A stretch of 64,000 nt of DNA from Marsupella aquatica. Lineage: Eukaryota; Plantae; Marchantiophyta. The stretch lies in the NCBI GenBank assembly GCA_973895155.1, contig OZ316891.1, forward strand, positions 7,433,808 through 7,497,807. The letters are read 5' to 3'. This document shows positions 14,305 to 47,145 of the stretch, one piece after another (positions within the stretch are counted from its first letter, which is position 1; every line of letters begins with the position of its first letter). A program made the position numbers and the translations under genes. The notes below the pieces were generated by a model. That model saw nothing but the letters and a program-made list of their open reading frames with translations. It searched no databases and was not told where the DNA came from.

Positions 14305-14310
14305 AAAAGA

Positions 14311-21300: not shown

Positions 21301-23092
21301 TCTCAAAACACTTGGTTGCGATTGCGCTCAGGAGAGACAAAAGTAAGCGTGCATGCATCATGGTAGAGTTCACTTTGTTTAATCCCAAGCCTAATTTCTT
21401 TATCAATTGTGCATTTACCCTGCCACTGTGCTTACATGCAGGCATACTCCCACTGCCCCCTAAGACGATCGAGGTGCAAATTGTTGAATGGAGAACACAG
21501 CACGAACAAAACGCTTATTTTGATCAAGAGGAAAAGAGTAAGGAGTTATACAAGGTACGTAAGGCTCTTAATAATCCCCAATGTTGAAGACGTATGAGAG
21601 TTCAATTTGATCCCTTGAAGGTGTCTGTTCGGTGGCAATTAATGTGCCTGTAATGTTGTAGGAATTCCGTGACGCTGAAAGAGGTGCCTTATCGAATGTG
21701 TTGAGCGTTCTGCTCCGGTTGAGACAATTTGCAGTGCACCCGAAACTTCCTTCCTTATGTAAAATTTGCAAAGAGGAGATCGGGAACAAAGTGCAAAGAA
21801 CGCCTCTTAGTGAGCCTCAACGAGCCCGACTCGTGTCAGAGTTTCAGCAATTGAAGATTGGAAGTGCTTGCGTGGACTGCAAGGTGAGTACAGTCACTTT
21901 GTGTATGGGGTATGATTGGGGTATGATTGAGGTATTTCAGTTACGTGCTTTGCCTAACAATTTCTGCACGCACTCACTTTAACGGTTGGATTGTGCAGGG
22001 GGGCTTGATTGGAAGTCCATTTCAGATTTCTGGCTGTGACCATGTATACTGTGGCATTTGTGCAATAGACCGGGAAGCTGGAACCTTCAAATCGGCAAAA
22101 TGTTCAAAATACGTGACAGCCCAGGTCCTATACAGGCCAGCTGATTTGAGGCTAATGAATGGTGGTGCGGAGTCAAAAGGGAAGGCGCGAAGAGAATATG
22201 ATGTCCGACACCCACCTTCTCCAAAATTTGATGCAGTCTTGGAATACCTGAAGTCAATTCCGCTGGACACTACAAGATAGGGCAGCAGCGAAAGCTTTGT
22301 GCCCAGGCAGAAGGCTCTTGTTTTCTCACAATGGACTTCGTGTCTCGACATGCTTGAGCCACACATTCTGAAGCCTGGTCTAAAGTTCACAAGGATTGAT
22401 GGAGGAATGAATTCCAATGTCAGAGAACAAGCCTTGAATGATTTCAAGATGACCCCAGAGGTACAACCGTCATTATCCGTCCAGATCGGTGTCTGTATTT
22501 GTTCAAAGGGTAAACTCTTTATATTCTAATTAAACTATTTCTACTCATTTCATGCAGATCAGCATTATCCTCTTGTCCTTGATGGCAACGAACACAGGAC
22601 TCAACATCACTGAGGCTACACATGTTCTTATGGTAGACGGGTGGTGGAATCCCACGATAGAGGACCAGGCCGTCGATCGGTCACATCGTATAGGACAAAC
22701 AAGGCCGGTGAAAGTCGTCAGGTTTATCGCCAAAGATTCGATTGAGTTGAAGATTTTGGAGCTGCAGGTAAGATTAGAAGTGCTTGCGTGGACTGCAAGG
22801 TGAATAAAGTCACTCTGTGTATGGGGTATTATTGGGGTATTATTGGGGTATTTCAGTTCGCGTGCTTTGCCTAACAATTCCTGCACGCACTCACTAGTAA
22901 TGATGAATTACGAATTCCATATATGTGGTCTCTAATTGTACGCATGTTGCATGTTTTGTGCAGAACAAAAAATGAGTGATGATCAGGGACATCATGTATG
23001 GCTGTGCGACCGGGAAAAAAGATAACATGGAACAAAATCTGGAGTTCATACTGGGAGAGAATCGGCAGCAGAGGTTCAATGCATCAGAGTAG
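18357..23092 (+). pseudogene. Multi-exon RAD5/16-family SNF2 ATPase with RING finger, N-terminally fused to a TE-associated domain, acidic repeats and a coiled coil
   Basis: Predicted exons ~18355-20312, 20405-20563, 20718-21342, 21442-21554, 21662-21883, 21999-22460, 22558-22767, 22964-23092. They give GGMLADDQ|GMGKT, LDECH, WCLSGTPIQN, LLRLRQ, RING CVDC..CDHVYCGIC, VFSQW, RIDG, GLNITEA and WWNP..EDQAVDRSHRIGQ. In-frame stops at 19347, ~19536, ~19872, 22278 and 22973. Confidence 0.85.
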
Positions 23093-24977
23093 CTAGATGA
23101 GTTTTAGCTAAGGTTCTCTTCGGTGCTTGAGTCAGTTAGGCAGTGACACTCTTATTGTTCGTTTACTTGTCAGTGCCACTCTCGTTTCCTCCCGTTGTGA
23201 TTTTAGTGCAGCGGGACAACGATGAGACTAGGAGGACAGAGCCTGAGTGGGTCTTTCCTTGCCACATATGTACCTGTTCGAGCCTCCTGCGGGAGCATTA
23301 TGAATTGAACACTTAATCTTTGAATCATGTCCACTGTTTCTCATGTCCACTGTTTCTTTGGTATTCTTTCTTGTGTTCTTTTGTGTGTGTTTAGGGTTTA
23401 GGTTATGCACTTGCAAGACACACCGAATGATTACCCTAGGGACATAGGTAATTTACAAGCATAGCAGCCCGTCCACTACAAGGAGATTTGGTTCCCTACT
23501 AAATATGGGACAAATACCTTACCATGAATCGCTTTGATAAGAGGGGAATGAATTCCCAACTCATCTTCTGGAAATTACCCCCAATAGTAAGGGGGCGGGG
23601 AGCATGAGGTACGTTGGGGTTAATTTCCCTACTTACCCCCTGTATTCCCCTCTTTCAAACTCCTAACCTTGCAGATCTTCCTTGTGATTTGGGCCATGAT
23701 CATGTACCGGGGGTAGGGCGGTCAGTTAATGATGGATAGGTATGAGGGGAACCCGGGTTGCGCCCAAGAAGGAGTTGTTTTGGATGAACAGTGGGTGTTG
23801 GTTTTGGTTCCGGCTTATGGCATCTAGAGGACCTATCGCTGACCTACTTACCAATGTCTGTTGAGCTTGAGTTAGAATGCTAGACCTCGTGCTAGACTTG
23901 GGAGATCTAGATCCTGAGGGGTTACTTACAAAGATGCTTGGTCGCTTGTACAAACAGTGAGGACCATTGAGTAGCGATTGCGTTGGGAGCAAGTGCGGCT
24001 TTGTATGGGAGGGACCGTTGGTGGTGCAAGGGCCACTAGATTGTTTGCTTGAGGTATTACATGGAAGCATTTGGGCACCAGGGGCACCAGGGGCACTTAG
24101 GCGTGGGTGCTAGGATTGGTGAGGTCGTTGGGTGGTAAGGTCCACCACTCTAGCTGAGGGCTGGTCGGGTCATGGGAAAAGGGCCGGGCTCAAGGTCAAC
24201 CGTACAGACCTCTAGATGGACTTTAGTTTTGAGGACTTGAGTGAGAGCTCCTCTTGGGCCCAAGGCAAATGAAGTTTACTTCATGTGCAACGGACACTTG
24301 GGGCACGAGTTACGGCCCAATCCAGGTTTGGCCGCTTGGGGGCTCTAGACGACTACGGGTTCTGAGGGCCTAGTCATGAGCATTGGGTTGGCCCAATCAC
24401 AATGAGCTAAGGCATTCCATGTACGGACACCTAACTAGAAAGTTATGGGCATAGCCAGTTGGTGGCGTGCCCAAACATGCAGGTTGGGGTCTAGGTGGGG
24501 GACCAAAATTTGGGGACCAAAGTTGGTCCGGGGGTGGCAGGTCTCCAGAAGCATATATGAGGGGAGTGGTGTCTCCCTGGGGGGCTAAGGGCGAGCCGAA
24601 GTCGTGAGCTGCGGCGGTCACGACACTAAGGGAAAATGCCAAACGGAAATAACGATAACTTCCCAACGGAAAGTCCATTGGAGGACTTTTTGGGTGCGGT
24701 GGGAAAGCTCTCAAGGAGAACTACATCCTCCTGAGCTTAGTTGGCTCTAGGGATGCCATGGATTCTTGGCGTTTGCGGGGGCTATCTCCCTCGCTTGTCA
24801 AATCCTACCAAAATAGCAGCCAAACCGGGTTCAGTCTCCCAAGGGAGCTTGCATTGGGGAGGTAAAGCGAAGTAGGCATGAAGGTTGAGTTCCAAGTCCA
24901 CTTGGCCCCTAGAATATCAGTGGGGGAGAACTGGGAGTTGGTTGTTAGAGTCGGGGCCTTTCTGGTCCCGGCGTGTT

Positions 24978-25994: not shown

Positions 25995-26329
25995 TGTTAC
26001 ATGTTCAGCAATGGACCGCTCATAGACAACATACACATGTGAAACATCCAACAAGCAAGTATCTCAACACAAGTGACACGTGGTTCAATCACCCCTCTGT
26101 AGGCTATGTCCAATGGGACACACATTCAAGAGGACTTCACTAGATTGTAAGCCCAGTGACCACACCAAGTCTCTACTCTCCCTATTCTCATAAAACTTTG
26201 TAACAAAGGGGCAATTGCTGCTTGACTGTGCATATCTAATCTTGATCAAGTATGTACCTCAACATGGTTAGACTAACTATGGTTATATAGTAACTCTAGA
26301 CCCAAGAGTAACTGTCTAGCATGATAACA
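25995..26329 (-). mobile_element. Probable Copia solo-LTR remnant
   Basis: TGTTA...TAACA ends. The internal ACACAAGTGACACGTGGTTCA...AGGCTATGTCCAATGGGACACACA resembles the reverse complement of the U5 part of LTR 47336-47719. No TSD found. Confidence 0.45.
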
Positions 26330-27060: not shown

Positions 27061-30000
27061 AGATATCAGGTGAAAAAGCCCAACAGAAAAATTCATTCCC
27101 CTATTTATCCTTGTTTTCTTTTCCACACCTTTTTACCCTGACTTGCTCCAATATCCAGGTGTGAGAGTAAAGTGTGATGACATTGATATAGTTTTGGTCT
27201 TTTTGAGGGTGTGTTTCTGTCTTATTGCTTTGATTTTTCTATTTTTGATTTTTCGCACCGTAAAGGTCGTGGAAAATTTAATCGATGACCACTGTAAAAA
27301 AAGTGTTCAACCCTTTATTATAGTTTTTGATATAACCCCATTCTAATTTAATTAATATATTGTTCCCCATATGGTACAAGGGCTGCAGTTTCTGGTATTT
27401 GTGCCTAGGATCAAACCTATTGGCTCGAATGATAGGCAGCACGATGATCTTTAGGGAAGCACTTTGCTTGCAATTGTCACATCTCAATCACAGTCAGTTT
27501 CCCACCAGGCCCAGCCCGGCCTATTGTGTTTGCAATGAGAAAACGTGTCCAGCAACTGTCATGCCGAGGGACAGTGCCTCTTATGCACATCGGCATGTCC
27601 CTCACATGTCCGCTAGGTATGTAGTTAGGGCTAGTGTACTACTTGAGTTAGCGACATGTTCTTATAGCAAATGCCAGGCGTTCTTGAAGCAAACGCGCTT
27701 GTTAGTGTGACGTCAGGACTTTGTTTACTTAGGGCATGTCTTTGTTTGTGGGTTTTTCAGTTCTTCTTGAATCGCTGTTGACAGAGCTCAGATAGTGCTC
27801 GTCGGTTCCGTACCCGGCTGATCTTGGCATCCTGCCGGTTTTTGATTCAATTTCAGTACAATTGTTTCTCTTACGCCTTTTATTCAAGAAGAACTGTCGA
27901 GTGAAGGGAAGAAAATCAAAAACATTGTGCTTCTCAGCTGCTCATGCTGGTCTAGACAATTTCCGTCAAAGCCGGTGCAATTTCTTTGCAGAAAAATCAA
28001 GCGATGGGGTTAGAGTTAGATTTTTCCTTGTATACACATCACTTATGTGTATACACTTAAACTCTTGGACTGGCGGAGTACACCCAGGAGGAGACGAGGG
28101 GAGAGCTTGGCTGGAGGTTTTGCATGTTGCCCAGGTTTTTCTTTTCCGGCCGCAACCTGCTTCACGACCTACTGCCATGACCTTTGTCGGCGACTTGCTG
28201 CCGACTGCACACGACGCTGTGCTCTTGCTGGAGTTTTTAACGACCCTTAGAAGCCCCTTTTTCGTTGGTTTTATGGCCATTTCCCGGCCACGGCTGCCAT
28301 CTTGCATCGGCTGCCGCGCGACAACCTCAGGACTGCCTCGGCCACCGCACGACAACCTCAGGACTGCCTCGGCCACCGCACGACTGCTTCTCGACTACAT
28401 AGGGCCACGCGCCCATTTTTGTTTCGCCTTTTTTGCCATTTTTTGCCTTCGTCGCCTCGCCACTCCTTTCGCTTTGGTGTGCAGGTTGTGCATAGGGCAT
28501 CGTGCCCCTTGCCTCGCCCATTTCCTTCCTTCTTTTTCCCTACCGTTATCAGCAATTAAAGCAGCTGGATGGGGGGGGAAGCGAGCGTAAGGAGAGGGCA
28601 CAAGGCCCTATGGAGAATAAAGAGGGGGAGGGGGAGTAATCATTCGACTCCCTCTCTTGGGAGTCCCCCCCTGCAGAGCACAAAGCCCATCCAGCAGCAT
28701 TAAGGAAGGAGGGGGAAGCGAAAGGAGGGCACCAAGCCCTAGGTAGCATTAAGTGGGGAGGAGGTGATTTTTGGCAGTAATGGAGGAGCCTTGCCAGAAG
28801 CAAAGCGAGGGAGAAGGCATGAGGCCCAACAGGAATCATTAAGGAGGGGAGAGGGAGCTCGTAGCCTCTCTTTGGGAGTTCATAAAGGGGGGCACGAAGC
28901 CCTATGGAGGGTTCAGGAGCCATTAAGAGGGGCTCATTTCTTTCTGTTCACCCTTGCCTTAATTTTGCCTCGGTTTTTCTTTGGCACTTACCCTGCCTCG
29001 CCTCACCCTTTCTTTGTCTTTCGGGCTGGATTCTTTCCTTTCGCCTTGCTCGACAGCATAGGGCCGCGCACCACTTTTTTAGTTGTGTATAGGTCGCTTG
29101 CCTATACACATTCGGCCGGTCGGCCTTAAACCCAATGTGTATACACTTAGGGGTGGGCCCATTTTTCTCGTATTTCTTTTCCCTCGATGCGCCTCCCTTG
29201 CTTTCCATTCCGAACGGCTGCACTTTCCTGGTCCACAATGGGGCCCGATGTGTATAGATTTTAGGGGCCCTCCATTACGCCCTCCTCATATGCATACCGC
29301 TGCGGGTCCTGTGTCTACACATCGGACGGTCAATTTGGCATATAATAGGCAAATGTGAAGGGGGCTGAATTTGCGCTTTTAAGGGTCATTTTTTTCCGAC
29401 GGTTTTTCTTTGTAATGGTTTTTATGTGTGTTCACACATTTTGTACATTTGGCACCCCAGGTTAGCATGCAGCATGTCAGCAGACGAGCCAGGAGGTAGC
29501 AGCACATCGCCACCGACACCCACACCACGCCATCCTTCTGCTACATTTGGCGGTCGCTTCACCACTACGCCGAAGCCTACTATCACTTCATTGCCATTTA
29601 CCCCTTCTGCATCAGTGGTTGTTCCAGCTTCACCGACATACAACATGGATGCCAACCACTCATCTGGCCGCATTGAGCGCTTCAGCGGGCGGCCAGGCAC
29701 TGTTTCTTTGTGTGAGTTCAAATCCACTTTCTACACTGTCGTATACGAATTGGAGTTGAAATGTGGCAACAATTTCACAAATGCTTTTGCATTTAAGCAG
29801 CTAGCCAGGTATGTGCACCATGAGGCTTTGGATGTGTATGAGCAGCATTCTCAACGGCTGCTTGCTGTCACACAGTTGCCTAACCCTACCTATGCCAGTG
29901 CAATTGCGGCAGCCTCACAATTGGCCTTACAGAATGTCATTGCAGCCCATGCTGCTGCTCCTGCCACTTCCCCTCCTACTCTAGTTCCTACCACTGCGCC

Positions 30001-32489
30001 AGTTACTCCCACTGTCTTGGCACAGGCTACATCAGGCATTTCTCCCACCATTGATTCTCCTGCCTTTGCTGATCCAGTGGCTGAGTTTTTCCAGGTTCTT
30101 GAATTGGAATTCCCAATCAAGAGTGCTAACAAAATCATGCAGTTGGCCACCTTTGTGAGGCAGCGCGATGAAACCTTGAAGATGATGTATTGTCGGCTTC
30201 TCAAGCTGAAGGAGGACACCCAGAGCATCACTGACCTGGAAGTTGCTCATCGCTATCTTCGCGCATTGGAGGGCACACCAGCTCTCCATTCGCAAGTGTT
30301 GCAGCAAGTATTCTCAGAGTTTGGAGACAGCTACACCCTGCTCAATGTCTATGACACTGCTGAGAAACTTGAGTTAGCCCATGCACATTATGAGGCCAGT
30401 ATTGCTTGTCCACCGTGATCCAGGTACCAGGCTGCTGCCCCTACAATGGCCACCCCTTCCCGTGTGCCACAGTATGCTTCCAAGACCAAACCAGCACATG
30501 CTGCTTTCATGCTGCCATCTTGCAACTACTGTGGCAATCCTAATCACAAAGCTAATGAATGTGATATTGTTGCTAAGGACCTGTCTTGTGTTTTTTGCGG
30601 GAAAGTGGGCCACTTGGAGGCAGTTTGTTTTGCCAATTCCCAGAGAGGAAGCAGCTACGACAACAGGCCACTCATCTTGCTCTTGTTTCCACTCCCCCAC
30701 CAGCTAGGAGGGCTCCTACTGCATCAGTTGCTCCTCCTTCCAGTGGCAAAGCACCCAGTGCCAACAAATTGCCCAAGCAGCAACAGAAGCAACCAGCTCA
30801 GAAGGAGGCTCATAATGCACAGGCAACTCAACTCCAGTCTCTGACTCATGAGGTTGAGTCCCTACGTGCCCAACTTGCCAACATAAAAGGCAAGTCACCT
30901 GCCTCTGCTGGTCCTTCTCAACTGGCTGGTCACGTGCAACCCATCCCGGGCCCAGGCACCACTGACAGTTCAGCATCTCTACCCCGCTCTTTCTATGGCT
31001 TGCCATTTGATGCTCATATGGGTGAGTGTGTGCTATCCTCTGCTACACAGCCTGGCCTTACAGCAGAATTTTCAGATTCATTCTGCCCTTCCTATTTTGC
31101 TTACCAGCAGGCTAGTGCAGCCTCCCGTATTGCTCCCACACGCCGTATTGTACAGGCTGATGGTCTTGCTGCCGGTCCTATGACTAGAGCCAGGGGAGCT
31201 CGGGCTGTCTTGCCCCAATCTTTTCAGCCACTCACACTTGCTGAAGAGCGCACCTTGTTGGCGAGGGGGGAGGGAGCTGCAGCTACATCCATTCCACCAC
31301 CAGGTGTTGTTGACATTTCACAGGGAGTTGTTTCTCCTGAGTTGCTCGAGCATTTCACCTCCGGTATGGCACAAAAGATTCTTACAACTCCACTTTTCAG
31401 TTGCCATGATTTACAACTGGATGCTAGAGTTGTCATCAGAGCGCTAGAGGGCTCACTGCATTCTTTATCAGCCCCTGTGACACCGGTTTTGGAGGTCCGA
31501 TCTCATGTACATACTGGACCTTCTTCTTCTCCATTATATATTCACTGGTTTGGCTATCCCAGTACCAATTTCTAGTGGTAGAGATGATAGTATTGCTGCA
31601 GATTGTGTGACCAGAGCTACACTTGATTCTGGTCATGCTGCCCCATCTTTCCTGACTATGCTGTTGAATGCAAAAACCGTGGACACTGACTCCCTTCACA
31701 AAGTACCTCATCATTTGCCAAAAGTGGTGTCTAGCGACAGGACTTCAGTTTCCACCACCATTGCCATTGTTGACAACAGGAATTCAGCGGTCAAGTTGGA
31801 GGGTCACACTCCTCAGGTGGTCATGCTAGACACAGGTGCTCAACCAATGATATTGGGCATTCAGTTTGCCAAGAAGATGGGACTGCTGACTGATCATTTA
31901 CAGCAATCCAAGTGGCACATTTGGATTGCTAGTGGCACTGTGGAGGATGTGCTGGGTGAGAGTACGTTCTACTTTACTCACTCTCACTTTTAATGGAGGT
32001 ATAGATCAGGAACTGCATTTCCCAGTCAGATGTTTGGTTACCAATGCCACTACGTATGATGTGCTCATTGGCCAGGAGGCTTTGTTCCCACCAGGTTTTA
32101 CCATTGACAATTGGCATGAGCATGCATACTACAGAGTTGATTGGCATACAGATGGCTCACACTTGGGCTACATTCCACTTGATTTGCATGGTGCTCATAC
32201 ACCTATGGCTCACCACTGTGTTTTGAAAGCAGTGCACACAGCTACCTATGTCAACCACCCATTGCAGGATTGGATTGAGGAGAATGATGATGAGGTGGTT
32301 GCTGCACATGCTGCTGCACGTATAGCAGCACTTTCCATCAACGTGGATCATCAACCAGAGGTGGTACAACGGCTCCAAGCAGCCCATGGACCTTTGGTGG
32401 CTGCATTGCGCAAATTTGAGGACCTTGGGCAGCACAATGGACAACCAATAGCCCCAATCTTGAGCGCACCAGTTACATGGACTCCTCCT

Positions 32490-33450
32490 CCGGATGGCCT
32501 TACATTGTTTGAGCTTTTTGGTGGCATTTCTACAGGCCTGGAAGCTCTCCTACAGTCTGGCATGGTGGTGAAGCAGTACATCTACGTGGACATTGATCCA
32601 GGTGCAAGGCAAGTGGCTGAATCCCGTCTGCTAGAATTTTCAGAGCAATTTCCCCAGCAGTTTCCACATAGTGCATGGAAGTCTGCATTTTCTTTCTTCC
32701 CTCCAGCTTGTCCAGCACCGGCACTTAACTTGGCTCCCTTGATTTGATCATAGCTGCTTGGGAATGCCAAGGGTTTTCAGCTGCTGGTCACGGTGCTGGA
32801 TTGCATGATTCTCGTTCTGGCCTTTTCACAGCATTGGTTCAGATTCTCACTTGGGCTCAATCCCTTTATCCTGCTATTGGCTATATCATTGAGAATACTC
32901 CATCTAAGTTTGACCAGCGTCCACAGGTCAAAGAGGATTTCAGTGTGGTCCAACATTACTTGGGACCACCCCTTCTCATTGATGCAGTGCACTATGGTTC
33001 TTATGCACGTCGTCTTCGTAACTTTTGGACTAACCTTGCACCACCTTCCTTGTTGGAGTTAGCTCTTCACCACACATCCAGGGACACTAACCTCACAGTG
33101 GACCAGATTTTGGATCCTGACAATTCTTGCCAACCAGTTACACGGCAAGAGCCAGCACCTTGGTATCCAGCCAATACCATTGGATAGTCCCGTGCTGCTT
33201 GGCCTACATTTGTGTCCTTTCCAGGTGCACATGCTTTTCAGGCTGATGGTCCTGGCCTGGTTTACCGACATTCTACCGGTACATGGGATGAACCTAGTCG
33301 TGAGGAGAGAGAACGGGCTATGGGCTTCCAACCCGGTACTACATGCCACACCAAAATCACCAAGCTGGCCAGGAATGCTTTACTTGGCAGGGTAATAGAT
33401 CTTAATGCTCTCACTTGGCTTCTGGTCACTTGCATCCTTTTTCAGATGTA
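32490..33450 (+). pseudogene. DNMT3-like C5 cytosine methyltransferase domain within pol
   Basis: Motif I LFELFGGISTG, II YVDID, IV WECQGFSAAG, V DSRSGLF, VI IIENT, VIII ARRLRNFWTNL, IX ERERAMGF, X LARNALLGR, in canonical order. Confidence 0.88.
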
Positions 33451-36400
33451 CATTCATCCAGCATCAGGAGTTCCAGCCCTACCACTCCATGGTGCTGCTA
33501 CATGGCATCCAGACCACGTGCACTTACCTCTATTCAACACTCACCGCTTCAGTCCAAGTGTTGGGGGGGGAGGAGGTCCCTTGTAACGTGGCTGATATTA
33601 TTTCTGAGTTTCATGGTGTGGATCAGACCAGAGCAACAGATACAACAGGCCTTGGAGAGGCCTCATCACCTTATCAGCAGCATGCTAGCAGCTTGGACAG
33701 TGGAGAGGCTAGCACTTCTGGCTCTTCAAGCACGAGTACATCAGGTCCTATTCCTAGTGTTGCCAACTACACATTCATCATGGGCAACCACCTGAGTAAA
33801 AGACAGAAGGACCAGCTGCTGAATTTTCTCCTCAAGCATGAGAACGTGTTTGCTTTCTCTATGAAGGACTTGGGTAAGTGCAAGACCATGCAGTTCTCCA
33901 TTGAGTTGGCTGATGAAACACCTATCTTCAGGCGGAGACATCGTTTGAGTAAGCATGAGTGGCAGCTGGTGGATGAGAGGTGCCAAGAGTTATATGAAGC
34001 TGGTCTTATTTAGCCATCTACATCAGATTTTGCAGCAGCTACAGTGATGCCAGCAAAGAAGGATTCCAGTGGATTGTGGACAGAGAAGCGCATGTGTGGG
34101 GACTACAGGCCACTGAACCTGGTCACACCCCAGGACAGGTACCCCATGCCACGGCCAGAGGAGCTATTTGACAGCATTGGAGACTTAGACATCTTCACTC
34201 TTGTGGATCTAAGGCAAGGCTTTAACCAGATTTTGCTGCTTGTAAAGGACCGCAAGAAAACAACTTTCCATGGTAGTAACCAACTATGGGAGTGGTTGGT
34301 GATGCCATTTGGCTTGAAGAATGCGCCCATATTCTTTCAAAGAGTCATGGACCAGGTTCTTCAAGGTGCTGAGTTTCTGAAATGCTACATTGATGATGTG
34401 TTGGTCCACAACAAAGGATTTGACCAGCATCTACTTGACCTTGAGGAGCTATTCATGAGGCTTAAGAAGGTGAACCTAAAGATACACCCCAAGAAGTGTG
34501 AATTTGCTGTCAGATCAGTAGTATACCTTGGGCACCGCATTCTTCCAAATGGAACCATGGCGCACTGGGCCAAGGTGGTATCCATCTTGGAAATGCCCAC
34601 TCCTAACGATGTTCACACTTTGAGGAGTTTTATTGGGTTGTGCAATTACTACCGGATCTACATCAAAGATTTCAGCACTATTGCACACCCATTGTATGCT
34701 TTGTTGAAAAAGAATGTGACTTGGACATGGAGTATAGATGCTGAGGCAGCATTTGCCACTTTGAAGGAGAAGCTCTCAGAATACCCGGTGCTGAGAAGAC
34801 CTGATTTCAGCAAGGTCTTTGTGCTACACACAGATTGGAGTGCCCTTGGGATTGGTGCCATTCTGGGCCAGCATGATGAGGAAGGTAAAGAGTACGTCAT
34901 TGCCTATGCATCCAGGAGCAACAATTAGGCAGAGAGTCATTATTCTTCGTATGAGGGTGAATGCCTTACTGTTGTGTGGGCTGTCATACATTATAGGCCC
35001 TACCTTTATGGGACCAGGTTTGTCCTCTACATCGACCACCAGCCCTTGATGTGGTTGATGACCAACGACAAGCTTACTGGCAAGCTTGCTCGTTGGGCGC
35101 TCATACTCCAGGAGTATGATTTTGAGGTAATTCATAGGCCTGGTGTGACACATCAAAATGCTGACACTATGTCCCGCAGCCCTTTGATTGCCTCTGATGA
35201 TTCCTCAAATGCACGGCAGGATTTTGACCAGGTTTCCATCCTGCCTACATTTCATGCATCTACCTATCTTGCTTTGCTGCCATGCTATGTTGTTGACCAA
35301 CTTGTGGTGGACATATGGGAGGACAGCGACACTCTGAGATTTCTGCAGCATGGGGAGTACCCCACCCATGTTACTACTGCCCAGAGAGACCGAATTTAGC
35401 AAAGGTCCAAGCGCTACTTGTGGAAGGGAGATCATCTTGTGCGCTGCTTGCCAGACAGGGAAGTGGTGGTTCCACCCATTCATGAGAGGGTTGGCCTTAT
35501 CCGTAAGGTACATTCTGAGCTTGGTCATTTTGGTGTTAAGAGGACTTATAGCCTCTTGGTCCCCCATTATCATTGGCGAGGCATGCATGGCCAGGTTCGA
35601 GATGTTATTGCCCGGTGTGAGCAGTGTGATAGAGTAAGGACTTCTTTCACATCTCGGCAACCCACACTTCATCCACTCCCTATTCAGGGCATGTTTTATC
35701 GTTGGTCATGTGATTTGGCTGGAGAATTACCCCTCACATCTCGGGGTAATCTCTACATCATGAACATGATAGAGCATTTCTCCAAGTGGATAGAACTTGT
35801 GGCATTGCCAGATAAGACCTCCCGTAGCACCAGCCAGGCATTCCTGCAACAAGTTCTCAGCCGTTTTGGAGCTTGTGCAGAATGTCTCACTGACTAGGGC
35901 TCAGAGTTTAGAGGAGAGTTCCAGGAGCTGCTTGATCAGGCCCTCATTGATCATCGTCGGACATCACGAGATCACCCACAGGCAGATGGCTTGGCAGAGC
36001 GCATGGTTCAGACATGCAAGAAGGGCCTCCGGAAGATCTGCCTCACCAGAAACAAGGAGGATTGGGACCTGGCCTTAGTTACCCTATATTGCCATGGGGT
36101 ATAGGATGTCCAGACATGCATCACTGTCTAACTTTTCTCCCTACTTCCTGTTGTTTGGTCGTCACCTAGTTCCACCTTCTGCTATTGCTGCTCACATGCT
36201 TCAGGTGGTGGACTTGGATTCAGCTGTGACTTGGTCTGATGTGATCTCTGAAAGGGCTGCCCTATTCAGGAGGGTTATGCCCATGGCCATGGAGAATTTG
36301 GCCATTGCACAACACAAGGACACACTGTGTTATGCACACACACGAGGGGGCACTTTTCAGCCCAAGGTCAGGAAGTTTGATGTGGGAGATTTTGTGTACT

Positions 36401-36609
36401 TGCAGCGGCAAGCTAACGACACCCTGGACACCTCTACCAGTCGTACTATTCTCAGGGTTAAAGCTATTCGACCGTCTGGAGTGCTAGAGTTACAAGGGGC
36501 AGATGGGCGCATAATTGCTGACAATGCCAAGAACTGTGCCCCTTGTCATCTACCTAACCTGGATCCCACCATTGTGACTTCTACTTGGATTCCACCTATG
36601 GACTACCCT

Positions 36610-36744
36610 TGCAAAGTGTGTTTGCGAATTGATGATGCTGACCAGATGCTGCTGTGTGACAATTGCAATGGAGGGTACCATCTTTTCTGCCTTTGGCCTG
36701 AACTTACCCAGGTGCCAGAAGGGTTATGGTTTTGCCCTTCCTGT
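36610..36744 (+). other. PHD finger (C4HC3) at the integrase C-terminus
   Basis: CKVC...MLLCDNCNGGYHLFCL.P.L..VPEGLWFCPSC. Confidence 0.92.
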
Positions 36745-37103
36745 GCTCCACGTGCTACCTGAATTTTCTTCAGTCCTCCTTTTGGCTGTGGTCTGGGGGG
36801 GATACAGAGGTTTACACCTCCACTACGTACATACCACTTCATTTGCTTTTTCTTGGCACTTGTGAATGTGATTGGAATTTTTCTATGCATGTTGGTTGCT
36901 AGCAGCTTGAACAAATGCCTTGCCGGTGACTTGTATGTTTTCGATACACTATGGCTACGATACTATATGTCACGACACAACGCACAACTCTGGCCAGTTT
37001 GCTTTAATTGCTGCCCGACAGCATTTTGTTACTGAGTAAAGACAAACTTTCAGCTTGCGATTGGGCATTGGCTGATTGAGCACTGCTTGAACAATCAGGT
37101 AAA

Positions 37104-37633: not shown

Positions 37634-37989
37634 TGTTAGACTCACTCAGGTCACAATTTGAGGATTGGATGGATCCCTACAAAATTTGAGGTACTCACAT
37701 CCACAATCTCTACAAGAAACTGTTAGCTCAGACTAGACAACAAATGCAAAACACGAGTAAGAGCATACTCAATTAGATGTTACACCAACAAGACACCACA
37801 AGTGGACAAATTTCTAAAGGATCCATAGCATATGAGAGTTCATGTGAAGAAGAGGCCAGGTGAGATGTGTGGGCCAAAACTAAATGTATCTTATCCTAAT
37901 GTAGTCAAAGGTAAATTTAATAATCAAAGGTAAACTAATAAAGGGTAAAGTCGGGAACTTGAGTCAATTCTTAACAATCTTCACCTTGA
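37634..37989 (-). mobile_element. Copia-type 3' LTR remnant with PPT
   Basis: TGTTAG...TTAACA (37634-37976). On the minus strand it is preceded by TCAAGGTGAAGAT, similar to the PPT TCAAGGGGAAGAT at 47323-47335. Confidence 0.6.
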
Positions 37990-39340
37990 AATACATTGTT
38001 AACTTGGAGTATATTTTGGGGCAGCATATGTGATCATAGCCTAATATAAATACAATTAATTTATAAAAAAAATCCAAAAAATTATCTATTTTTAATATAA
38101 ATGATTAATTTTATTTTGCAATAAGTATATTTTAGAGAATATTTACAGACCCCACTAAAGGTCCCTTCCAAAATTCAAGACTCCATAACATGCCATGTCA
38201 TCATGATGCACTGCAAATAGGTACGGATTGGTTTACAAAATAAAATTACTTCAACAGTCGTGTTTGTGGCAGGATTTTGGTAAAATTGAGAACGCCATGC
38301 CGTAAACCTTGATGTAAAAATGTTTCAAAAATAACCGCTTTATTTACCTTGAGTTGTAGCAAGGTGATAAAGAGATAAATGACTATTTACTCCTTAACAA
38401 CTCGATTTTGTTCCGGTTAGGAGTGGATAAGATCAAAAAGACCTAATTAACAAGATTTGAGAAGTTTACACCAACATTCTTAGGTTGGAGAGATTTCTAA
38501 TGATCTCCTTAACATAAGTGTTTAACCACAAACTCAAGTGGGTAATCCTTAGGATTCACGGTGCAATAATAAAGACTAGAATTAACAAAGATTGAAACTA
38601 GAGAGAGAGTAGATAAGAGTTTTCAAAGTGCAAGGGAATTGAATTTCTGACCATCACCACTCATTCAATAAGGATTATGGCCTAATTTAAGATTCAGAAA
38701 TCAACATTTTCTATGCTTTTTGATTTCTCGTAGCAACTCTTCTCCATCTATTGAATTTAGAAGATATGAACGTAAATCAACCCGAGACACTTTTCTGGTC
38801 CTGTTGAGGACGGTACTAGGATACTCGAATTGGCTTACTTCTCCTACAATCCTTAAGATTGCTTGGTTGAGTTTTGTGCAAATGTCAATTTTCTCTTTGG
38901 TGAATCTTCCAAATGTATTGGTCACAAATCTCATTGATCTTCCAATATCATTATAGGCACACTCTAGCATTCATTGAACATTTCACAACAACTCAAGGGT
39001 TGCTAAACTTCTTCCTTTTACTCAACCATGGTAAAAAGAAGGGAAGAAAAGACATAGATTTCTCCAAAATCAAAATGGGGAAATCAAATGCATCTCTCTC
39101 TTCCGTTGACTTTGGGTTCTCCTCCTTTTGTACTAAAAGTGGAGATTATGAAAAGACATGTCTTTTCAAAACCCAAGTCTAAAGAAGTAGGTAAATAAAA
39201 GTAAACTATCCTAGTCAAAAATGGAGTAGAGACTACAATGGATATATCAACAAAATGCTGGAGTCTATTTACTCATATACTAATCTATATAGCTATTTCT
39301 AGGTCTAAACTAATGTGGCTCTAACTCTCTAAATATAGTT

Positions 39341-41173
39341 CTATTCAGGTCCTATCTTCTGGGAAGGATCCTCCTCAGGGTTGGCCATGGCAAGGGGTTC
39401 TGGCCGAAGGTAAACTCCCTGCTGGCCAGTGGTAAAAGGGATGGACGGGTCAATATCCATGTTCTCCTGATGGGCACTTGGGTCATGAGAATAGGTGTAA
39501 GAATGGGAGTGGAAGTGTGTACTGGGAGTGGGGAAACCAGGAGGGTTGAGGGGTGATGAGGGGCCAGTGGAATAGACTCCTTCATGAGGACGAGGAGAGA
39601 AAGATCTGGTAGTAAATGGAGGAATCTCAGTATCAGCTAATAGCTCCTCAATAGTCAAGTCACTCATCTCCCTTAAGGCTTCACAGGTCTTTGAGAGGCC
39701 TGTAAGTGCATCATCCACCTTGGTACTCACATCTACCACTAAATGGTTAATCTTGGAGAAAAGGATGGGTGTGGTGTTCTTGGCCAAATACTCATCATAA
39801 ATTTGGGCCTTAAGAAGATCCAGAGAAGCTATCTTAGTCAAAGGCTCAATCAGATCCAAAGATTGAGTGATACTGAGTTGGAGAGTATGCTCAAGCTCAT
39901 TCTTCTTCTTACTCCTTTCCAACTGCTGTTTGAGTTCAGATACCTTCTTCTTGAGGAACTCATTCTCCTTCTCCAACTTCTTCTTATCTGTGGCATCACT
40001 CATGGTGGAGATCTTCTCAAGAATCTGCCCTGGTTTCACTCCTAGCTTCTGCGAAATGTCGGTGATGACCTTCTCCATCACAGTGGTCTTCCTCTTCACC
40101 TTCTGGAATGTGTCTGAGATGATCTGGAAATCAGCTAAGGTGTCTTGGGAGGCATGGCCGGGTGCATCCGGAAATTCAGCCGGGTCGACGAAGGCCGGGT
40201 CGGAAAAGTCCGGGTCGAGGTTCCGGGCAGTAGACCGGGTCTTTCGAGGATTTGTCTCTGCTGGTTCCTCATCCTCACTGTCATCAGAGGTGGCCTGGGT
40301 GATATCTGGATCTGTCTCTCCATACTTGATGAAGTTGTACTTGGCCAATAGTAATTTCTTCTCCTCTCTGAACAAAACTCCTTCAAAGCTATATAGATGT
40401 ACCAGGTAGCAGGAGAGGGGAGTAGGACTCTTGTTGGATAGGTTCTATACCAACTTCCTTATCAAATCAAAGATAAGCTTAGCCCAGTTGACTTTTCTTT
40501 CTCCCTTGTAAGCAGCAACAATGGTAGAGCCAACTCCAACAGTAACTCTTCTCGGCTTCTCAGGGTACACCAGGGGTAGCAGAAAGCTGAAGACTCGTCT
40601 CAGATCAGGATCCAAACACTTAGAAACATTGAACCCGTCCTTACTGTTGATGGCTCCTTTGAAGTAAGAAAGGATTAGATTGACAGCTCTTCCCACTGGA
40701 CCTTCTCCTTCATCTTCCAATACAAAAGCTTCTACAATCATCATCTGAGTCCATCGCTCAGGTCAGCCTCTGGAGGTATCCTTAAACTCAGCCGGACACT
40801 CCTTGGATCGGATCTCTCTGATCATATCTTCGCTCTGATAACTCCAGGGTAGCTCCATCAGAGACTCATAGCCCATCCTGAGCAAAGACTCCCTCAGTTT
40901 GACCTTCTCAGCTTCACTGTCCGGAATAGTTGGCCTCAGAATTTTCATGGCAATAGGGACCTCCTTTCTCTTCGATCGTCTCATAGGGGCTTTAACCGAA
41001 GTAGGTGCAGGTGATGTTGAGGTTGAATGCCCCTTAGAGACGCGAGAAGTGGACATTCCGGCTGGATCCGTCCCTTGCTCCATAGGACTTATCGAAGCAG
41101 CAAATGGATTCCCAATAAATGGCTTGCCTCCTCGTCGGTGAGCTCTACAATGCTGCGACTTCAGAATGGTCAA
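39341..41173 (-). pseudogene. Retrotransposon accessory ORF (~610 codons): TE-associated domain, acidic linker and coiled coil
   Basis: ORFs 40763-41173, 40445-40744 and 39341-40375 share one frame, separated by single TGA and TAG stops. Homologous to 5896-6678. Confidence 0.75.
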
Positions 41174-42831
41174 TCGCTTCGGTGTCGACCAATGGTAGAA
41201 ATGTCCGGGTCGACTTGGCTACGGCGTTTCTGATCAACTGACAAGCGCTTCTGGAAACGTTGATCAAGATCCCGTCAATCAGAATTCAGGTGCATCGAAC
41301 GTGGGGCAAAGATAGACTCAAACGGGCCTGCAATGTGGATGTCCGGATCGACCTGGCCTTCCTTGTCATCACCGATGTATGCACGATCAGAATCTCAAAC
41401 TTCCTGCCTTCACTCCCAGCGGCGGAGTTGGCATTCCCCTCACAACGAATCAGTCAGTACCCTCATATCCAGGCTCTCATCAAGAAATTCAAGATTAGTC
41501 CTATAATCCGGACCCAAGATCCTCTACCAAAAGGGTAGAGCCTCCTCACTCTACTGCTTTAATAGCCTAATGCGCTCGGAAACTCAAAACCTACTAAGTT
41601 CGGCTTTGAGAGGTGTGAGAGGCCGGATCGACTCTCCTTCCTTATATCCAGATTCTGCTGTGGTTGTGCCCGTGTTTGACTTATGGTTTTAAAAACTTTG
41701 GCAATGGACAGCTGTTGTTGAGTAGAAACGGGATTTCATGACAATTTTTCCAGTGTTGAGTGTCGGTGGATTTCCCAGAGTTCCGTCGCATGAAACTTGG
41801 AGTTTATGGGCTCAACGGATAGATCAGGGCAAGAGCTTTCTAAAGGTGTGAAGAAATCACTGAACGGAGCTCGTGGTGCAGAGAGATCTAAGTTTTTGTC
41901 GTTCTGGATTTTGTGAAGAAAGTTGGCAATCGACTCGGAGGGAGAAGCGTCAAGTGTTTTGACTCAACGGAGAGATTGAGGCAAGACGATTATTTTGAGT
42001 CCGGGATTGGCTCTTTGATGCAAAGAGGAAGGCTAAGCAAAATCAATTACCTTGTTGGACTTGGTGACGGCACCAAGTGCAATTGATCAACATTCATTGT
42101 TGACAAGGTACCATTTTTTTCTCTTTGAAAAACTGATTCGAAATTGGCTATGGCAATTGAGAGAAATCTGTCATCTTTACCAATTTTTTTCTCCCTCGTT
42201 CTTTCCTTGTTTTGGGTGCTTCTTATATCGATCTTCACCGCCTCGGAGTCTAGTTTCCAAATCTGAAATCGGATCTTGATTTCGTCAAAACCCGAGTGAG
42301 ATATCTTGCGTTTGGTGTCGAGGGGTACATTCTGCCGTGTGTATTTCTGCGCGCGCGACCAGATTTCGACGACGAAGGGTGGTAGGGGGTTTTGGGGGTT
42401 CGAGGACACGTGTCAGCCCCTCGATTGTTCTTCCAAAATTCCCACAGGGCCTGTACAAGGGTCATAGAATATTCCAAAAAACCAGAGAACTATTTTTTGA
42501 CCGTCTGACAAAGATTTCATCCGCCGAACGGTAACTTTTTTGGTTATTTTTTGGCGAGGTCGTAGCCATTGAAGTTGGCAACGCGGCGCACCAATCACAT
42601 CACAATTCCGACAACGGGTTGTACTTGGTATTTCGGTTATTCCCTGAGGTGGTCAAAACGGGGGAGTTTCCCAAGGTTTTACCCACCTCGATCAAAATTT
42701 GAATAACTTTTCCGTCAAATTTGATTTCGGTTTTCAGTATTGGACTCCTAGCTTTGTGGGCTATGCGGTGGTGTTGAGTTTCGAGTTTTTTGAGAAGTTG
42801 TGAAAAACAAAATTTTTTGTGATTTTCTCAT

Positions 42832-45800
42832 ATGAGTGATTCGGAGGAGTTTTTCGAAGACGTGGAACTTGAAGCACGAGGATCACCGTGGAGGTTTCAG
42901 GGGCAGAGAGAGGAGCAGGAAGAAGAGCACGTGACACCGATACCATCACCGGTGCGGCGTGTGGTGGAGGAAGCAGTACTACTACCGGAGCTCACGGTAG
43001 TGCCAAAGAAGAAGATGGGAACTTTCAAGCTTGGGGGACCCAAGTATGAAGTGACAAAGTATGATGGGCGCTCTGACTACTTGCTATGGGAGAAGCAGGT
43101 GAAGGGAGTGCTCTATGCGTCAGGGATGGGCCAACTGCTGAGCCCTCGTGAAGACGATGTTGATGAGAAACAATGAGACCGCATGCAGGAGCAGGGAGTG
43201 TGGTGTGTTACACTCTATCTCATGCCTCCCATCATCAAGCAGTTGGGTGCACATAAGGATTGCATGTCCTTGTTTGCGGAATTGCAGAGCAAGTATCACC
43301 GCAAAGAGTTGTCGAACCGGCTCTACACTTCCTACAAACTGATGAGTTTCAGGATGAAGGAATCCGGTATGAAGTTGCAAGACCATGTGGATGCTTTCAA
43401 CGACATGGTCGTTGACTTGGAAAACCTTGGGGAGACTTTGAATGATGAGACGAAGGCTCTACAGCTTCTTAGTTCATTGCCTCCATCTTACCAGTCCCTA
43501 TCACGAGTGTTGTTGCATCGTGATAGGGATACCATTTCATACAATGACGTGGTAAGTTCTCTGCTTAGTGATGATCTTCAGCAGAAGATGCACATCACGT
43601 CACAGCCTTCATCATCTGGTGCTGCCCTCAATGTTAACCGTGGGAGGAGTATGCAGCGACCAATTGGGGACCGTAGAACCCAGTTTAGATCTAAATCCAG
43701 ATCTACGTCCAAGGGTAAATCCCCTCAGAGGAGGCAGGTGACATGTTGGAAGTGCAACCAAGTTGGACACTTCAAGCGAGACTGTAAGGGAAAGGCAGCG
43801 GAAACTTCATCGGCAAATGTGGCTAGGGCTGATGGAGAAGCTGATTTACTCAATGACGAGTATGTTTTATGAAGCCGGGGGTATGCCCTGTGCACGTCAT
43901 CTAGGAGAGCAGATGATGTGTGGATTCTTGATTGTGCTTGCTCTTTTCATATTTGTTACATTCGTGAGTTTTTCAGTTCTTACTCTGTTTCAAACGGTTC
44001 AGTTCTGATGGGAAATGATCACTCTTGTCAAATTGAGGGAATTGGGTCTGTGAAGATTCAAATGTTTGATGGCACTGTGCGCACAGTGTCTGGAGTCAGG
44101 TATGTACCTGGCATGCGTAAGAATCTGATTTCACTCGGTGTGTTGGATTCAAATGGTCATCAATGGAGCGTTATTGATGGTGAACTTCAAGTCAGGTCGG
44201 GAGAGACAATGATTTTGAAGGGGAGTAGACAAAAGAATTTGTATGTGTTACAGGGCAATACTGTATGTGGAGAGGCCAATGTAACCAAGTCTCACGAGAA
44301 GATGACTCAACTGTGGCATTCACGGCTAGGCCACATGAGTGAGAAGGGTTTGGCTATCTTACGGAAGAATGGACTCATTTCTGATTTGTAATCTTGTAAA
44401 TTAGAGTTTTGTGAGCATTGCATTCTTGGAAAGCAGCATCGTCGTGCTTTTGATGTTGGAACTCATCGTTCCAAAGCGGTTCTTGAGTACATACATAGTG
44501 ACGTGTGGGGTCCATCCCCGACTCCCTCACACTCTGGAAAGTTGTACTATGTATCATTTATTGATGATTACTCAAGATTTGTGTGGATTTATTTCATGAC
44601 ACATAAGTCTGATGTCTTGTCCATTTTTAAGAAGTGGAAGGCCCAGGTGAAGAATCAGACTGGAAACACGATCAAGTGTTTGGATACAAGGATGAAGAGT
44701 CTGAGGTCAGACAACGGCGGGGAGTACACTTCAATGGAATTTGAAGAGTACTATTCAGAACAGTGGATAACTCGCCATCTCACCATAGTTTATACTCCGC
44801 AGCAGAATGGTGTCGCTGAGAGGCTCAATCAGACATTGTTGGAGCGGTCACGGAGTATGTTGAGCCAATCAGGTTTACCACAAGAATTTTGGGCAGAAGT
44901 TGTCAATACCGTAGCTTATTTGGTAAATCTTTCTCCTTCTAGTGCTATCAATTTCAAAACGCCGTTTGAGATGCGCTATAAGCGGCAAGCAGACTATCAT
45001 GGCTTGGTAGTTTTTGGAAGTGATGCATATGCTCTCACACCGAAGCAGAATAGGACCAAGTTGGATCATACCTCCAAGAAATGTGTTTTTCTTGGGTACC
45101 AGAGTGGTGTGAAAGCCTATAGGCTATGGGATCCTATTGCCTGTAAGCTCGTTGTCAGTAGGGATGTTTCCTTCAATGAATCCAGATTATTGAAGGAGGG
45201 GGAGAATACTCAGGTCTCCCGTACTGACAAAGGAAAATCTCCTATCCCGGATCTCGTTGAGGGGGAGATTGGTTATGAGGTGCATGACCGGAGAGAAGGA
45301 GTTGCTCCAATTATGGAACTGGTTCCTGTGCCAGAGGAACCAGAGGAGTTTGTTGATGTTGGTGAGCAGCAAGTGGATGCTGTTGAGCTTCAAATTGTAC
45401 CAGCACACGCAGATCAACCGGAGTCATCGGCTAGAAGAACATCTGGTCGCACTGTACGCGCTCCACCAAGGTATGGACAGTGGGTTGATTCATCTCAACT
45501 GCAAGAGGATGATTTTACAGCTGATGATGAGGATGATGCGTTAATTTTGGAAGAAGGGGAACCTTCTTCATTTCATGAGGCAAGTGCTTCAAAGGAGAAG
45601 CAGAAGTGGACTGTAGCAATGCAAACGGAGATGCAGTCACTAAAGGACAACAAAACTTGGGAGCTTGTTAAGCTGCCTAAGGGTCAGCAAGTGGTGGACA
45701 GCAAGTGGATTTACAAGCTGAAGGATAATTCCATAGGAGGTGGATCGAAGGTCTACAAGGCTAGGTTGGTAGCAAAGGGATTCACACAAGAGAAAGTTGT

Positions 45801-47145
45801 GGATTACAATGAGGTCTTCTCACCAGTTGCTAAGTACTCTACAATACGACTATTGTGTGTACTTGTTGTAATGTTTGGTCTGCTGCTAGATCAGATGGAT
45901 GTTGTGACAGCTTTCCTCTATGGCACATTGGAAGAGGTGATCTTCATGAGACAACCGCTAGGTTTTGTGAAGAGAGGACAGGAGGAATTGGTTTGCAGAT
46001 TGCTGAAATCCTTGTATGGGTTGAAGCAGTCACCAAGACAGTGGAACAAGCGGTTTGACGATTGGATTCGGTCACAAGGTTTTCACAGAAGTGTATTTGA
46101 CCCTTGTGTGTATTTGAAACCGGTAAAGAATGTTGTCTTTGGGTTCATTGTTTTAGTACTTTATGTGGATGATATGCTAATTGCAGCCAAGGATAGGTCT
46201 GAGATTGTTAAGCTCAAGGCACTGCTTAGTGTAGAGTTTAAGATGAAGGACTTAGGGCCAGCTAAGAGGATTTTGGGTATGGAGATCACTAGGGACTTGG
46301 AGACTGGCAAGCTATGGTTGACGTAGAGCAGTTATGCAAGGAAGGTAATTGCAAGGTTCAACATGGGGAATAGCAAGCCAGTAAGTACCTCGTTGGCTCC
46401 ACACTTCAAGTTATCATCAGCGTTATGTCCTACGGATGACACAGAGAAGGGGTTGATGTCAAAGGTTCCGTATGACAAGGCAGTGGGGAGTCTCATGTAT
46501 TTGATGACTTGCACTAGACCTGATCTTGCCATGGCTATGGGCAAGGTGAGCAGGTACATGTCGAATCCAGGGAAGGTACACTGGGAAGCAGTGAAGTGGA
46601 TTATCAGGTACTTGAAGGGTACCGTGGATCATGGTCTTTTATTTGATGCGAATGCAAAGAATGCTAAATCATTGATTGGCTATGTTGATTCTGACTATGG
46701 ACAAGATTTGGACCGAAGGAGATCAACAACAGGATACGTGTTCACACTTGGCGGTGGATGCATAAGTTGGAGGTCTACTTTGCAGAAGTGTATTGCTCAG
46801 TCTACTACAGAAGCGGAGTATGTTGCAGCTGCGGAAGCAGCAAAGGAAACGATTTGGTTGGATAGACTTATCACTGAAATGGGATTGCCACAGGGGAATG
46901 TGAAGCTCCATTGTGATAGTCAAAGTGCGCTCCACCTTGCTGTGAACCAGGTGATGGACAACAGAGTGAAGCACATTGACGTTAGGTACCATTTTATCAG
47001 GCAGGCTGTGTCTGATAATTTGTTTGAGCTAGTCAAGATTGATGGTAAACTTAACCCGGTTGACGCATTTACCAAAGTGATTCCTTTGGAGAGTTTCTCT
47101 AGACACCGTGACGTATTGCAGGTTTTGCAATTGCATCACAAGTAG
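42832..47145 (+). pseudogene. Copia gag-pol polyprotein in a single frame with four in-frame stops
   Basis: KYDGRSDY.LW, CWKCNQVGHFKRDC, WILDCACSFH, LWHSRLGH, CEHC, RSDNGGEY, QQNGVAER, YKARLVAKG, LYVDDML, GYVDSD, KHIDVRYHF. Stops at 43174, 43870, 44389 and 46324. Confidence 0.93.

Follow-up and report, generated by a model that had tools for sequence, protein, structure and literature searches.

A decayed Ty3/Gypsy-type retroelement of a liverwort carries a predicted DNMT3-like methyltransferase in Pol and has termini that probably derive from inside its cDNA repeat

Why would a transposon carry the enzyme of its own silencing, and how would a retroelement with an integrase become inserted when no pair of long terminal repeats (LTRs) encloses its genes? 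Both questions are raised by a locus of the liverwort Marsupella aquatica, which lies in a stretch of 64,000 nucleotides from contig OZ316891.1 (assembly GCA_973895155.1, positions 7,433,808 to 7,497,807; hereafter the window). An initial annotation, made from the sequence of the window alone, described a dead LTR retrotransposon at 29474..36762 with a DNMT3-like DNA methyltransferase (MTase) inside pol and a PHD finger at the end of the integrase. We find a dead copy of Ty3/Gypsy type that very probably belongs to a known lineage, and we consider it probable that the DNMT3-like domain of such elements methylates their complementary DNA (cDNA) and that their integrase cuts a palindrome located inside the LTR.

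The motifs and domains named in that annotation (DTGA, the MTase motifs, YIDD and the PHD finger) are all located where it had placed them on the + strand. Within the coding region the order is Gag, protease (PR), MTase, reverse transcriptase (RT), RNase H (RH), integrase (IN) and PHD (Table 1). The best match of the element is the Gag-Pol of Ty3-G (E 1e-85), and the integrase region matches Pfam Integrase_H2C2 and rve. No Pfam family matches the Gag region; the Atlas clusters closest to it are Retrotrans_gag (0.92-0.93), and it is 70-72% identical to the relatives P0025 and P0004. Pfam scans of 14 window translations and 24 relatives returned neither a chromodomain (Chromo), the integrase being followed by a PHD finger instead, nor any tyrosine-recombinase family. 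Because the copy contains six in-frame stops and six frame changes, it is dead, as annotated; those not assigned to a domain in Table 1 are a stop at 35397, just upstream of the integrase, and a frame change near 33565. What had to be revised is the designation as an LTR retrotransposon and its limits. The whole element occupies 27557-36977; its ends are TG...CA, a target duplication of 4 bp encloses it, and no LTR pair flanks the coding region within the window. Elements of this kind have the PR-RT-RH-IN order, a Ty3-like RT, a DDE integrase, TG...CA ends with a duplication, a primer site and a polypurine tract, all as in Ty3/Gypsy, but they carry split direct repeats instead of two direct LTRs around an internal region.

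To which class does the MTase belong? The search proposed with the annotation, Pfam DNA_methylase, gives a match on 32729-33184 (24.9 bits over a cut-off of 22, E 1.7e-5). The motifs stand in the annotated order, with FGGIS (motif I, from 32517), AWECQ (motif IV) and ENT (motif VI), and the C-terminal landmarks ARRLRNFWTNL, ERERAMGF and KLARNALLGR are present. A profile built from 11 rows and run against solved structures gave 57 hits, led by DNMT3A/3B/3C (E 4e-20), with DRM (4e-10), M.HhaI (4e-9) and DNMT2 behind and no DNMT1/CMT chain among the 57. For a structure model of the intact relative P0020 (predicted local distance difference test 89), the top Foldseek matches are all DNMT3A/B/C (template modelling score about 0.7), with approximately 20% identity to host DNMT3 in the structural alignments. 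Ranked in this way by profile and predicted fold, the domain appears to be DNMT3-like, as first proposed, and more distant from DRM, DNMT1/CMT, DNMT2 and bacterial enzymes.

The domain is a constant part of its family. We fetched 80 metagenome loci with an MTase query, and MT2 is present in 80 of these 80 loci (as chosen by that query) at a nearly constant distance to PR and RT; likewise, in sequencing runs that contain the window's own family, MTase bins are covered like RT bins. The MTase is therefore family-wide, and not a one-off insertion. In the relatives P0025 (Calypogeia fissa) and P0020, a single open reading frame (ORF) runs from Gag through the MTase into RT, and thus the MTase is part of the same polyprotein as RT, as had been supposed. 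Between the window and 24 of the 80 loci, nonsynonymous differences per site (pN) are 0.21-0.22 and synonymous differences (pS) 0.67-0.75 in the MTase, pN being 0.23 in Gag, 0.36 in the linker and 0.12 in RT. Synonymous sites are near saturation in this comparison, and dN/dS is uncorrectable for PR, MT2, RT, IN-C and PHD. These values indicate that the MTase domain has been under purifying selection. We give hardly any credence to a single capture of part of a host DNMT3 or to a chimeric assembly: all that speaks for either is the frame breaks near the domain, and against both stand in-frame PR-MTase-RT proteins in Calypogeia (CAM6101866) and others, the purifying selection, and a family of 489 representatives matched by the MTase profile at E < 1e-30. 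Furthermore, DUF3444, which is the C-terminal domain of host plant DNMT3 (PMC6453930), is unmatched in the Pfam scans of window translations and relatives.

Whether such a domain methylates DNA is a harder question, and several observations weigh against activity. First, the annotation did not mention that motif IV reads EC in place of the canonical PC and that motif VI reads ENT in place of ENV, although the catalytic Cys and the Glu-Asn of motif VI are retained. Second, the Klebsormidium domain produced no methylation in yeast, a result that its authors call inconclusive (PMC5890265). Third, the observed/expected ratio of CG is 0.28 in the element vs 0.57 in the window, but we rejected CG depletion as a sign of self-methylation, since in 6 of 7 metagenome loci CG is even scarcer in the flanks than in the element. 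It is therefore conceivable, albeit a good deal less likely than an active enzyme, that the MTase is kept but inactive as a DNA C5-methyltransferase, and that it binds nucleic acid or S-adenosylmethionine or contributes to particle structure. This alternative, which is compatible with the integration model below, is favored by the replacement of PC by EC and of ENV by ENT throughout the bryophyte clade and in many distant relatives, by the yeast result, and by the lack of element-specific CG loss. PC and ENV occur in the Marchantia and Klebsormidium copies. The EC form is common among long intact ORFs, alongside PC forms, and so it is a lineage trait and not decay. Moreover, decayed copies retain the catalytic Cys, the motif I glycines, the Glu-Asn of motif VI and the arginines of motifs VIII and IX (WECQ in 20, ENT in 19 and FGGIG in 16 of 24 loci), a full DNMT3 fold is predicted, and the related SymbioDIRS-Dnmt3 domains are active (PMC5890265). 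On balance we lean slightly toward a co-packaged MTase, made in the same polyprotein, that would methylate the cDNA in cis so that it arrives already marked; cis action on cDNA has been proposed before (PMC5890265, section 11 and peer-review file).

The second question concerns the ends of the element. Contigs of sequencing runs contain two joints of the window's family, from 36975-77 to 27553-57 and from 27883/4 to 36802, and at 27557 there is a step in depth together with 16 contigs that have unlike flanks (summed contig depth being no measure of copy number). No RNA run is among those listed as containing the family, which says nothing about its expression. The joints and the depth step delimit a repeat A (27557-27883) and a repeat B (36802-36977). 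Since neither repeat has a blastn match in the 80 loci, their equivalence with the repeats of relatives rests on position, termini and joints. When the 27 long loci were compared with themselves, seven proved to have the complete arrangement A-coding-B-GC-A-B (A1, B1, A2 and B2 below), and an eighth has the same with B2 partly deleted. The window copy stops after A-coding-B and is missing the further A-B of full copies. Two sites, each with identical flanks, carry B-A-B in one assembly and a lone B in another (L009/L011 and L047/L044). Both ends are present at 12 distinct sites, of which eight have an exact 4-bp duplication, two match at three of four positions and two fail; this count leaves out L041, which is truncated at its 5′ end, and L010, L011 and L073, which are repeats of one site. 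The window itself shows no repeat pair, as would be seen in an ordinary LTR element whose LTRs had decayed or been truncated and whose short repeats were incidental. We regard this explanation as very improbable: neither terminus of the copy is missing, its 4-bp duplication is exact, and independent insertion sites show identical termini and layout, as does the window's own family.

The junction between B1 and A2 reads CA, two bases, TG in 15 of 15 loci of a motif scan (12 of them distinct). The two bases are GC, or else AC, GT or AT as expected of C-to-T or G-to-A decay, and GC is the dominant spacer in the window's own family. The integrated ends, which are the start of A and the end of B, are the two halves of a palindromic CA-GC-TG in the middle of the predicted LTR. 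The join between A2 and B2 is more variable (n = 11: seven flush, three with 2 nt missing and one with a different last base), which is consistent with end-joining.

Two further signals flank the repeats. B1 is preceded by a G-tract, 6-8 of the final 8 bases being G in 23 of 24 loci. The sequence directly behind A1, which lacks a TGG start, pairs with a 15-mer situated 116-143 nt upstream (12-15 of 15 Watson-Crick pairs, 23/23 loci). This duplex has compensatory changes: in the window, two paired positions differ on either arm, and a further such change occurs in L020. A longest-run test beat all 200 shuffles in five of nine sequences, the other four of which have internal mismatches. Self-priming is known from Tf1, Tj1 and the plant element Tcn1 (PMC4600332; PMC6317226). 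The G-tract and the primer site would be the start points of each strand in LTR-type reverse transcription, and hence predict a linear cDNA with an LTR of the composition B-GC-A, wherein repeat B would be the upstream part and repeat A the downstream part, with R and U5.

We propose the following sequence of events. Transcription likely starts inside A1 and ends in A2. The RNA then very likely primes itself at the end of A1 in the manner of Tf1, and the plus strand would start from the G-tract, giving a linear cDNA whose ends (ATAC... and ...CAAT) are not integrase sites. With somewhat less confidence, we suggest that the integrase nicks both strands of CA-GC-TG after CA, and that the two processed ends, with 2-nt 5′ overhangs, are inserted 4 bp apart; the A|B join would form when the free cDNA ends are joined, before or after this event. 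Such nicks produce exactly the kind of end that retroviral integrases use, a recessed CA-3′ with an overhang of 2 nt, and the integrase of foamy virus cleaves LTR-LTR palindromes. If linear cDNA ends were joined, CA and TG would be separated by four bases. The A-coding-B form in the window likely arose by recombination between B1 and B2 or from a one-LTR circle, and such a copy could not replicate even with intact genes.

Two side observations concern the ends. In L014 (5685-5697 and 14748-14761), the TG start is preceded by GC and the CA end is followed by AC, and beyond these lie TCTA and TCCA. It is as though the 2-base spacer had been kept at either end, as a staggered palindrome cut would give; this is a single case. 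In L037 and L045 (9121-9281 in each), an inverted lone B lies inside the element's own gag-protease region, possibly through auto-integration or as a nested fragment.

Some of the data sit poorly with this scheme. The mirror form A-B-GC-A-coding-B, which a symmetric two-LTR circle predicts, was found at 0 of 22 distinct 5′ sites; something fixes the polarity, and the circle model leaves its cause unexplained. When repeat identity is compared within and between copies, the outcome is mixed, a repeat's own partner being the best match in 2 of 10 cases for B and 5 of 8 for A. The forms with B alone in short-read loci may be assembly collapse. Finally, folding of the whole region gives a z of only -1.6.

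Could these elements instead replicate like PAT and Ngaro? Retroelements of that type have split direct repeats and a tyrosine recombinase and replicate through a circle. RT would copy an RNA running from A1 into B2 and, by switching templates, build a circle in which the A|B join is inherited; at B|A, the DDE integrase would simply stand in for the recombinase. The layout A-coding-B-A-B is indeed DIRS-like (PMC5890265, legends of Figs. 1e and 4c), such a model would make sense of the strict polarity, and the repeat-identity counts are compatible with it. Nevertheless, we find it unlikely, as B1 begins exactly at the G-tract and A1 ends exactly at the self-complementary primer site, which are LTR-type signals, and as the A|B join varies by 1-2 nt among copies while the length of the B|A spacer is constant. 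We retain the view, which taken by itself is fairly probable, that a DDE integrase opens a palindromic attachment (att) site inside the LTR.

Coupling this internal att site to the methyltransferase is a speculative step. We doubt, but mention, that the MTase marks CAGCTG (CHG cytosines on both strands) and thereby chooses the cut site and shields the chromosomal one, which would amount to restriction-modification logic in a retrotransposon. If true, this would account for both the strict polarity and the spacer changes. The GC spacer is altered by C-to-T or G-to-A in 10 of 13 distinct loci, where CTG decay in the repeats predicts a fraction of 0.40 (P approximately 0.008, in a test picked after the data had been seen and with copies that are not independent).

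As annotated, the integrase ends in a PHD finger, and its closest counterparts are those of WSTF, CHD4, KDM5/Lid PHD1 and BAZ2B. PHD fingers of this type read unmethylated H3K4, and that of the element has Gly where readers of trimethylated H3K4 (H3K4me3) carry a cage Trp. A pattern count of this residue across relatives returned nothing. The Chlamydomonas element REM1 also carries a PHD. We are evenly divided as to whether the PHD would steer or tether the complex by way of H3 tails with unmethylated K4.

How widely is the lineage distributed? The initial annotation supposed that it extends into land plants and that it is related to a charophyte element, and both suppositions are borne out, the tie to the charophyte element being closer than mere analogy. 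Named MTase homologues come from Calypogeia fissa, Sphagnum magellanicum, S. compactum, Klebsormidium nitens, Closterium, Marchantia polymorpha (MARPO_0091s0058) and the chlorophyte Scenedesmus sp. PABB004; judged by these sequences, the lineage is wider than streptophytes. The window element is 70-85% identical to bryophyte elements, while the Marchantia copy, with PC and ENV and 39% MTase identity, represents a second sublineage. Three queries of a viral collection, each reaching close relatives only, found no relative.

A scan of domain layouts in 173 proteins distinguishes two arrangements: the MTase precedes RT in the named streptophytes, or lies between RNase H and integrase. The full RT-RH-MTase-IN-PHD order is found in 35 of the 173 proteins, Scenedesmus included. 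The group with the second arrangement comprises P0007, P0013, P0033 and approximately 70 more, Scenedesmus being its sole named member, and P0140 additionally carries a G-patch. Many RT-IN-PHD proteins have no MTase within their ORF, but as such ORFs may have been split, these cases were not scored as loss or absence. One protein that has no MTase, P0425 (1975 aa), combines protease, RT, RNase H, integrase and PHD, and it branches first in the clade described next.

An RT tree of 193 sequences (FastTree, approximate supports), which omits P0420 (Marchantia), P0384 (Klebsormidium), P0380 and P0385 for insufficient RT coverage, unites all proteins that bear MTase and PHD in one clade (0.99). Within it, the window element clusters with Calypogeia and Sphagnum-like sequences (1.0), adjoining a clade that includes K. 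nitens KFL_013780010 (0.93). The MTase tree, also made with FastTree and with supports that are approximate and unreliable beside the midpoint root, recovers K. nitens as homologous, with no settled branching among the streptophyte sublineages.

The closest published system is KnitGypsy-Dnmt3, described in K. nitens only and as an acquisition in that lineage (de Mendoza et al., 2018; PMC5890265); full-text searches find its name in one paper. Like the window element, it has an unpermuted Dnmt3-like domain in a Gypsy Pol ORF and, according to the figure legend, DIRS-like repeats (PMC5890265), a layout with Gypsy domains that seven complete relatives and the joints of the window's family also show. 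The K. nitens proteins KFL_013780020 (MTase) and KFL_013780010 (RT-RH), which we infer to be the published element, are homologous to the window element, with identities of 36% in the MTase and 52% in RT and with GFPCQ where the window has WECQ. The window element very probably belongs to the KnitGypsy-Dnmt3 lineage and is not a new kind, but that lineage is wider than K. nitens and includes liverworts, mosses, Closterium and Scenedesmus. The main text of PMC5890265 does not mention 'PHD', and its accessible text does not describe TG/CA ends, a target duplication, a G-tract or self-priming for KnitGypsy-Dnmt3; figures and supplement may show the PHD or the termini. Among the matches listed by full-text searches, which leave subscription journals uncovered, no title or abstract refers to land-plant members or to the end structure. 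Relative to the accessible literature, then, the range over land plants and a chlorophyte, the two MTase positions, the PHD and the anatomy of the ends appear to be new.

Other known systems share single features. The chromoviruses Tf1/Sushi and Tcn1, the latter occurring in mosses, have the Ty3 domain order and a primer site complementary to their own 5′ RNA and not to a tRNA (PMC6317226; PMC4600332), whereas the window lineage has a PHD in place of the chromodomain, an MTase in Pol and no LTR pair when integrated. DIRS-order elements, including SymbioDIRS-Dnmt3, share the A-coding-B-A-B layout and a Dnmt3-type domain in the RT ORF (PMC5890265); in contrast to them, the window lineage has no tyrosine recombinase, and it has a DDE integrase, TG...CA ends and 4-bp duplications. 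Host DNMT3 proteins (animal DNMT3A/B and moss PpDNMT3b; PMC6453930) share the motif order, profile and predicted fold, but the MTase of the element has EC and ENT, lacks PWWP, ADD and DUF3444, and is embedded in a polyprotein. As far as their accessible text goes, PMC6453930 and bioRxiv 10.1101/2021.02.12.428880 deal with host DNMT3 only. EpiLTRs and DAM-LTRs are LTR retrotransposons that likewise combine a DNA methyltransferase with a chromatin reader, but their DNMT is sister to DNMT4 and they carry DAM and a chromodomain, and the preprint describing them sets them apart from the streptophyte Gypsy-DNMT3 (bioRxiv 10.64898/2026.05.21.726589). Both this preprint and PMC12344493 cite the element of PMC5890265 under 'streptophytes', and their available text names no land plant.

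Table 1. Features of the retroelement copy, in window coordinates
Feature	Position	Strand	Remarks
Target-site duplication, left copy (CAAC)	27553..27556	+	4 bp
Repeat A, 5′ end of element, starts TGTCATG	27557..27883	+	Joints at 27553-57 and 27883/4; same start in relatives
Self-priming duplex, 5′ arm; predicted transcription start	27758..27772	+	
Self-priming duplex, 3′ arm; putative primer-binding site directly after A	27882..27896	+	15/15 Watson-Crick pairs
Long non-coding leader, variable in the family	27897..29473	+	Summed depth low compared with A and gag; longest ORF without Pfam match
Gag-like region, CCHC knuckles at about 30518-30631	29474..31575	+	Stop at 30416; frame changes near 30634 and 31570
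Aspartic protease, DTGA at 31829-31840	31790..32120	+	Frame change near 31962
DNMT3-like C5-MTase domain, motifs I to X unpermuted	32499..33445	+	Frame change near 32715; stop at 33185
RT, YIDD at 34386-34397	33840..34727	+	Stop at 34011; RVT_1 E 1.8e-27
RNase H	34728..35117	+	Pfam RT_RNaseH; stop at 34926
DDE integrase: H2C2 finger, rve core, C-terminal part	35475..36600	+	Stop at 35895; frame change near 36075
PHD finger, end of polyprotein	36610..36744	+	Pfam PHD 44.1 bits, E 2e-11; stop codon at 36760-36762
Polypurine tract, G-run directly before B	36795..36801	+	
Repeat B, 3′ end of this copy, ends CACGACA	36802..36977	+	Joint data and termini
Target-site duplication, right copy (CAAC)	36978..36981	+	4 bp

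Other transposons lie in the same window. A young Ty3 element at 2149-15701 (- strand) has 1391-bp LTRs that are 99.86% identical, an open gag (10039-13095) and pol (7066-10038) in one frame with a single stop between them, and two more ORFs (5896-6750 and 4106-5908) without a Pfam match; it interrupts a CACTA-like transposase (Transposase_21 at 1574-2158). The stretch 16232-23100 (+) is likely the continuation of the CACTA-like element, followed from 20718 by a spliced gene for an SNF2-family helicase (Pfam E 2e-36), which is possibly transposon cargo. A Copia element at 43177-47145 (+) consists of four in-frame segments separated by stops, and 47558-47720 matches 26001-26176 in inverted orientation (69%). 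An open frame of 367 aa at 39341-40444 (-), without a Pfam match and within the repeated region 37822-41700, is perhaps an accessory ORF of another retroelement. Two host genes lie further downstream: an intron-rich GNAT acetyltransferase gene from 50588 to about 53900 (-), with a Pfam match on one exon, and an extensin-like ORF with Ser-Pro4 repeats and a signal peptide at 58433-61201 (-; 922 codons).

What do these elements mean for the biology of their family? Gypsy elements bearing DNMT3 had been shown in one charophyte alga, without a mechanism (PMC5890265), and their presence in Marchantia, Calypogeia and Sphagnum places them in transformable land plants for which methylation mutants exist, so that the question of why a transposon carries its silencing enzyme becomes testable. 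Pipelines that find LTR elements need an LTR pair (PMC6317226) and would miss the whole group. In the present lineage, a writer (the MTase) and a reader (the PHD) have been kept together from Scenedesmus to bryophytes, despite two positions of the MTase in Pol. A retroelement with a DDE integrase and integrated ends from inside its LTR would imply a route of integration unlike that of retroviruses and Ty3. Most tentatively, and only in conjunction with the doubtful idea that the MTase controls the att site, these elements might represent an old retroelement group that is spread over the green plants and has abandoned the retroviral integration of cDNA ends.

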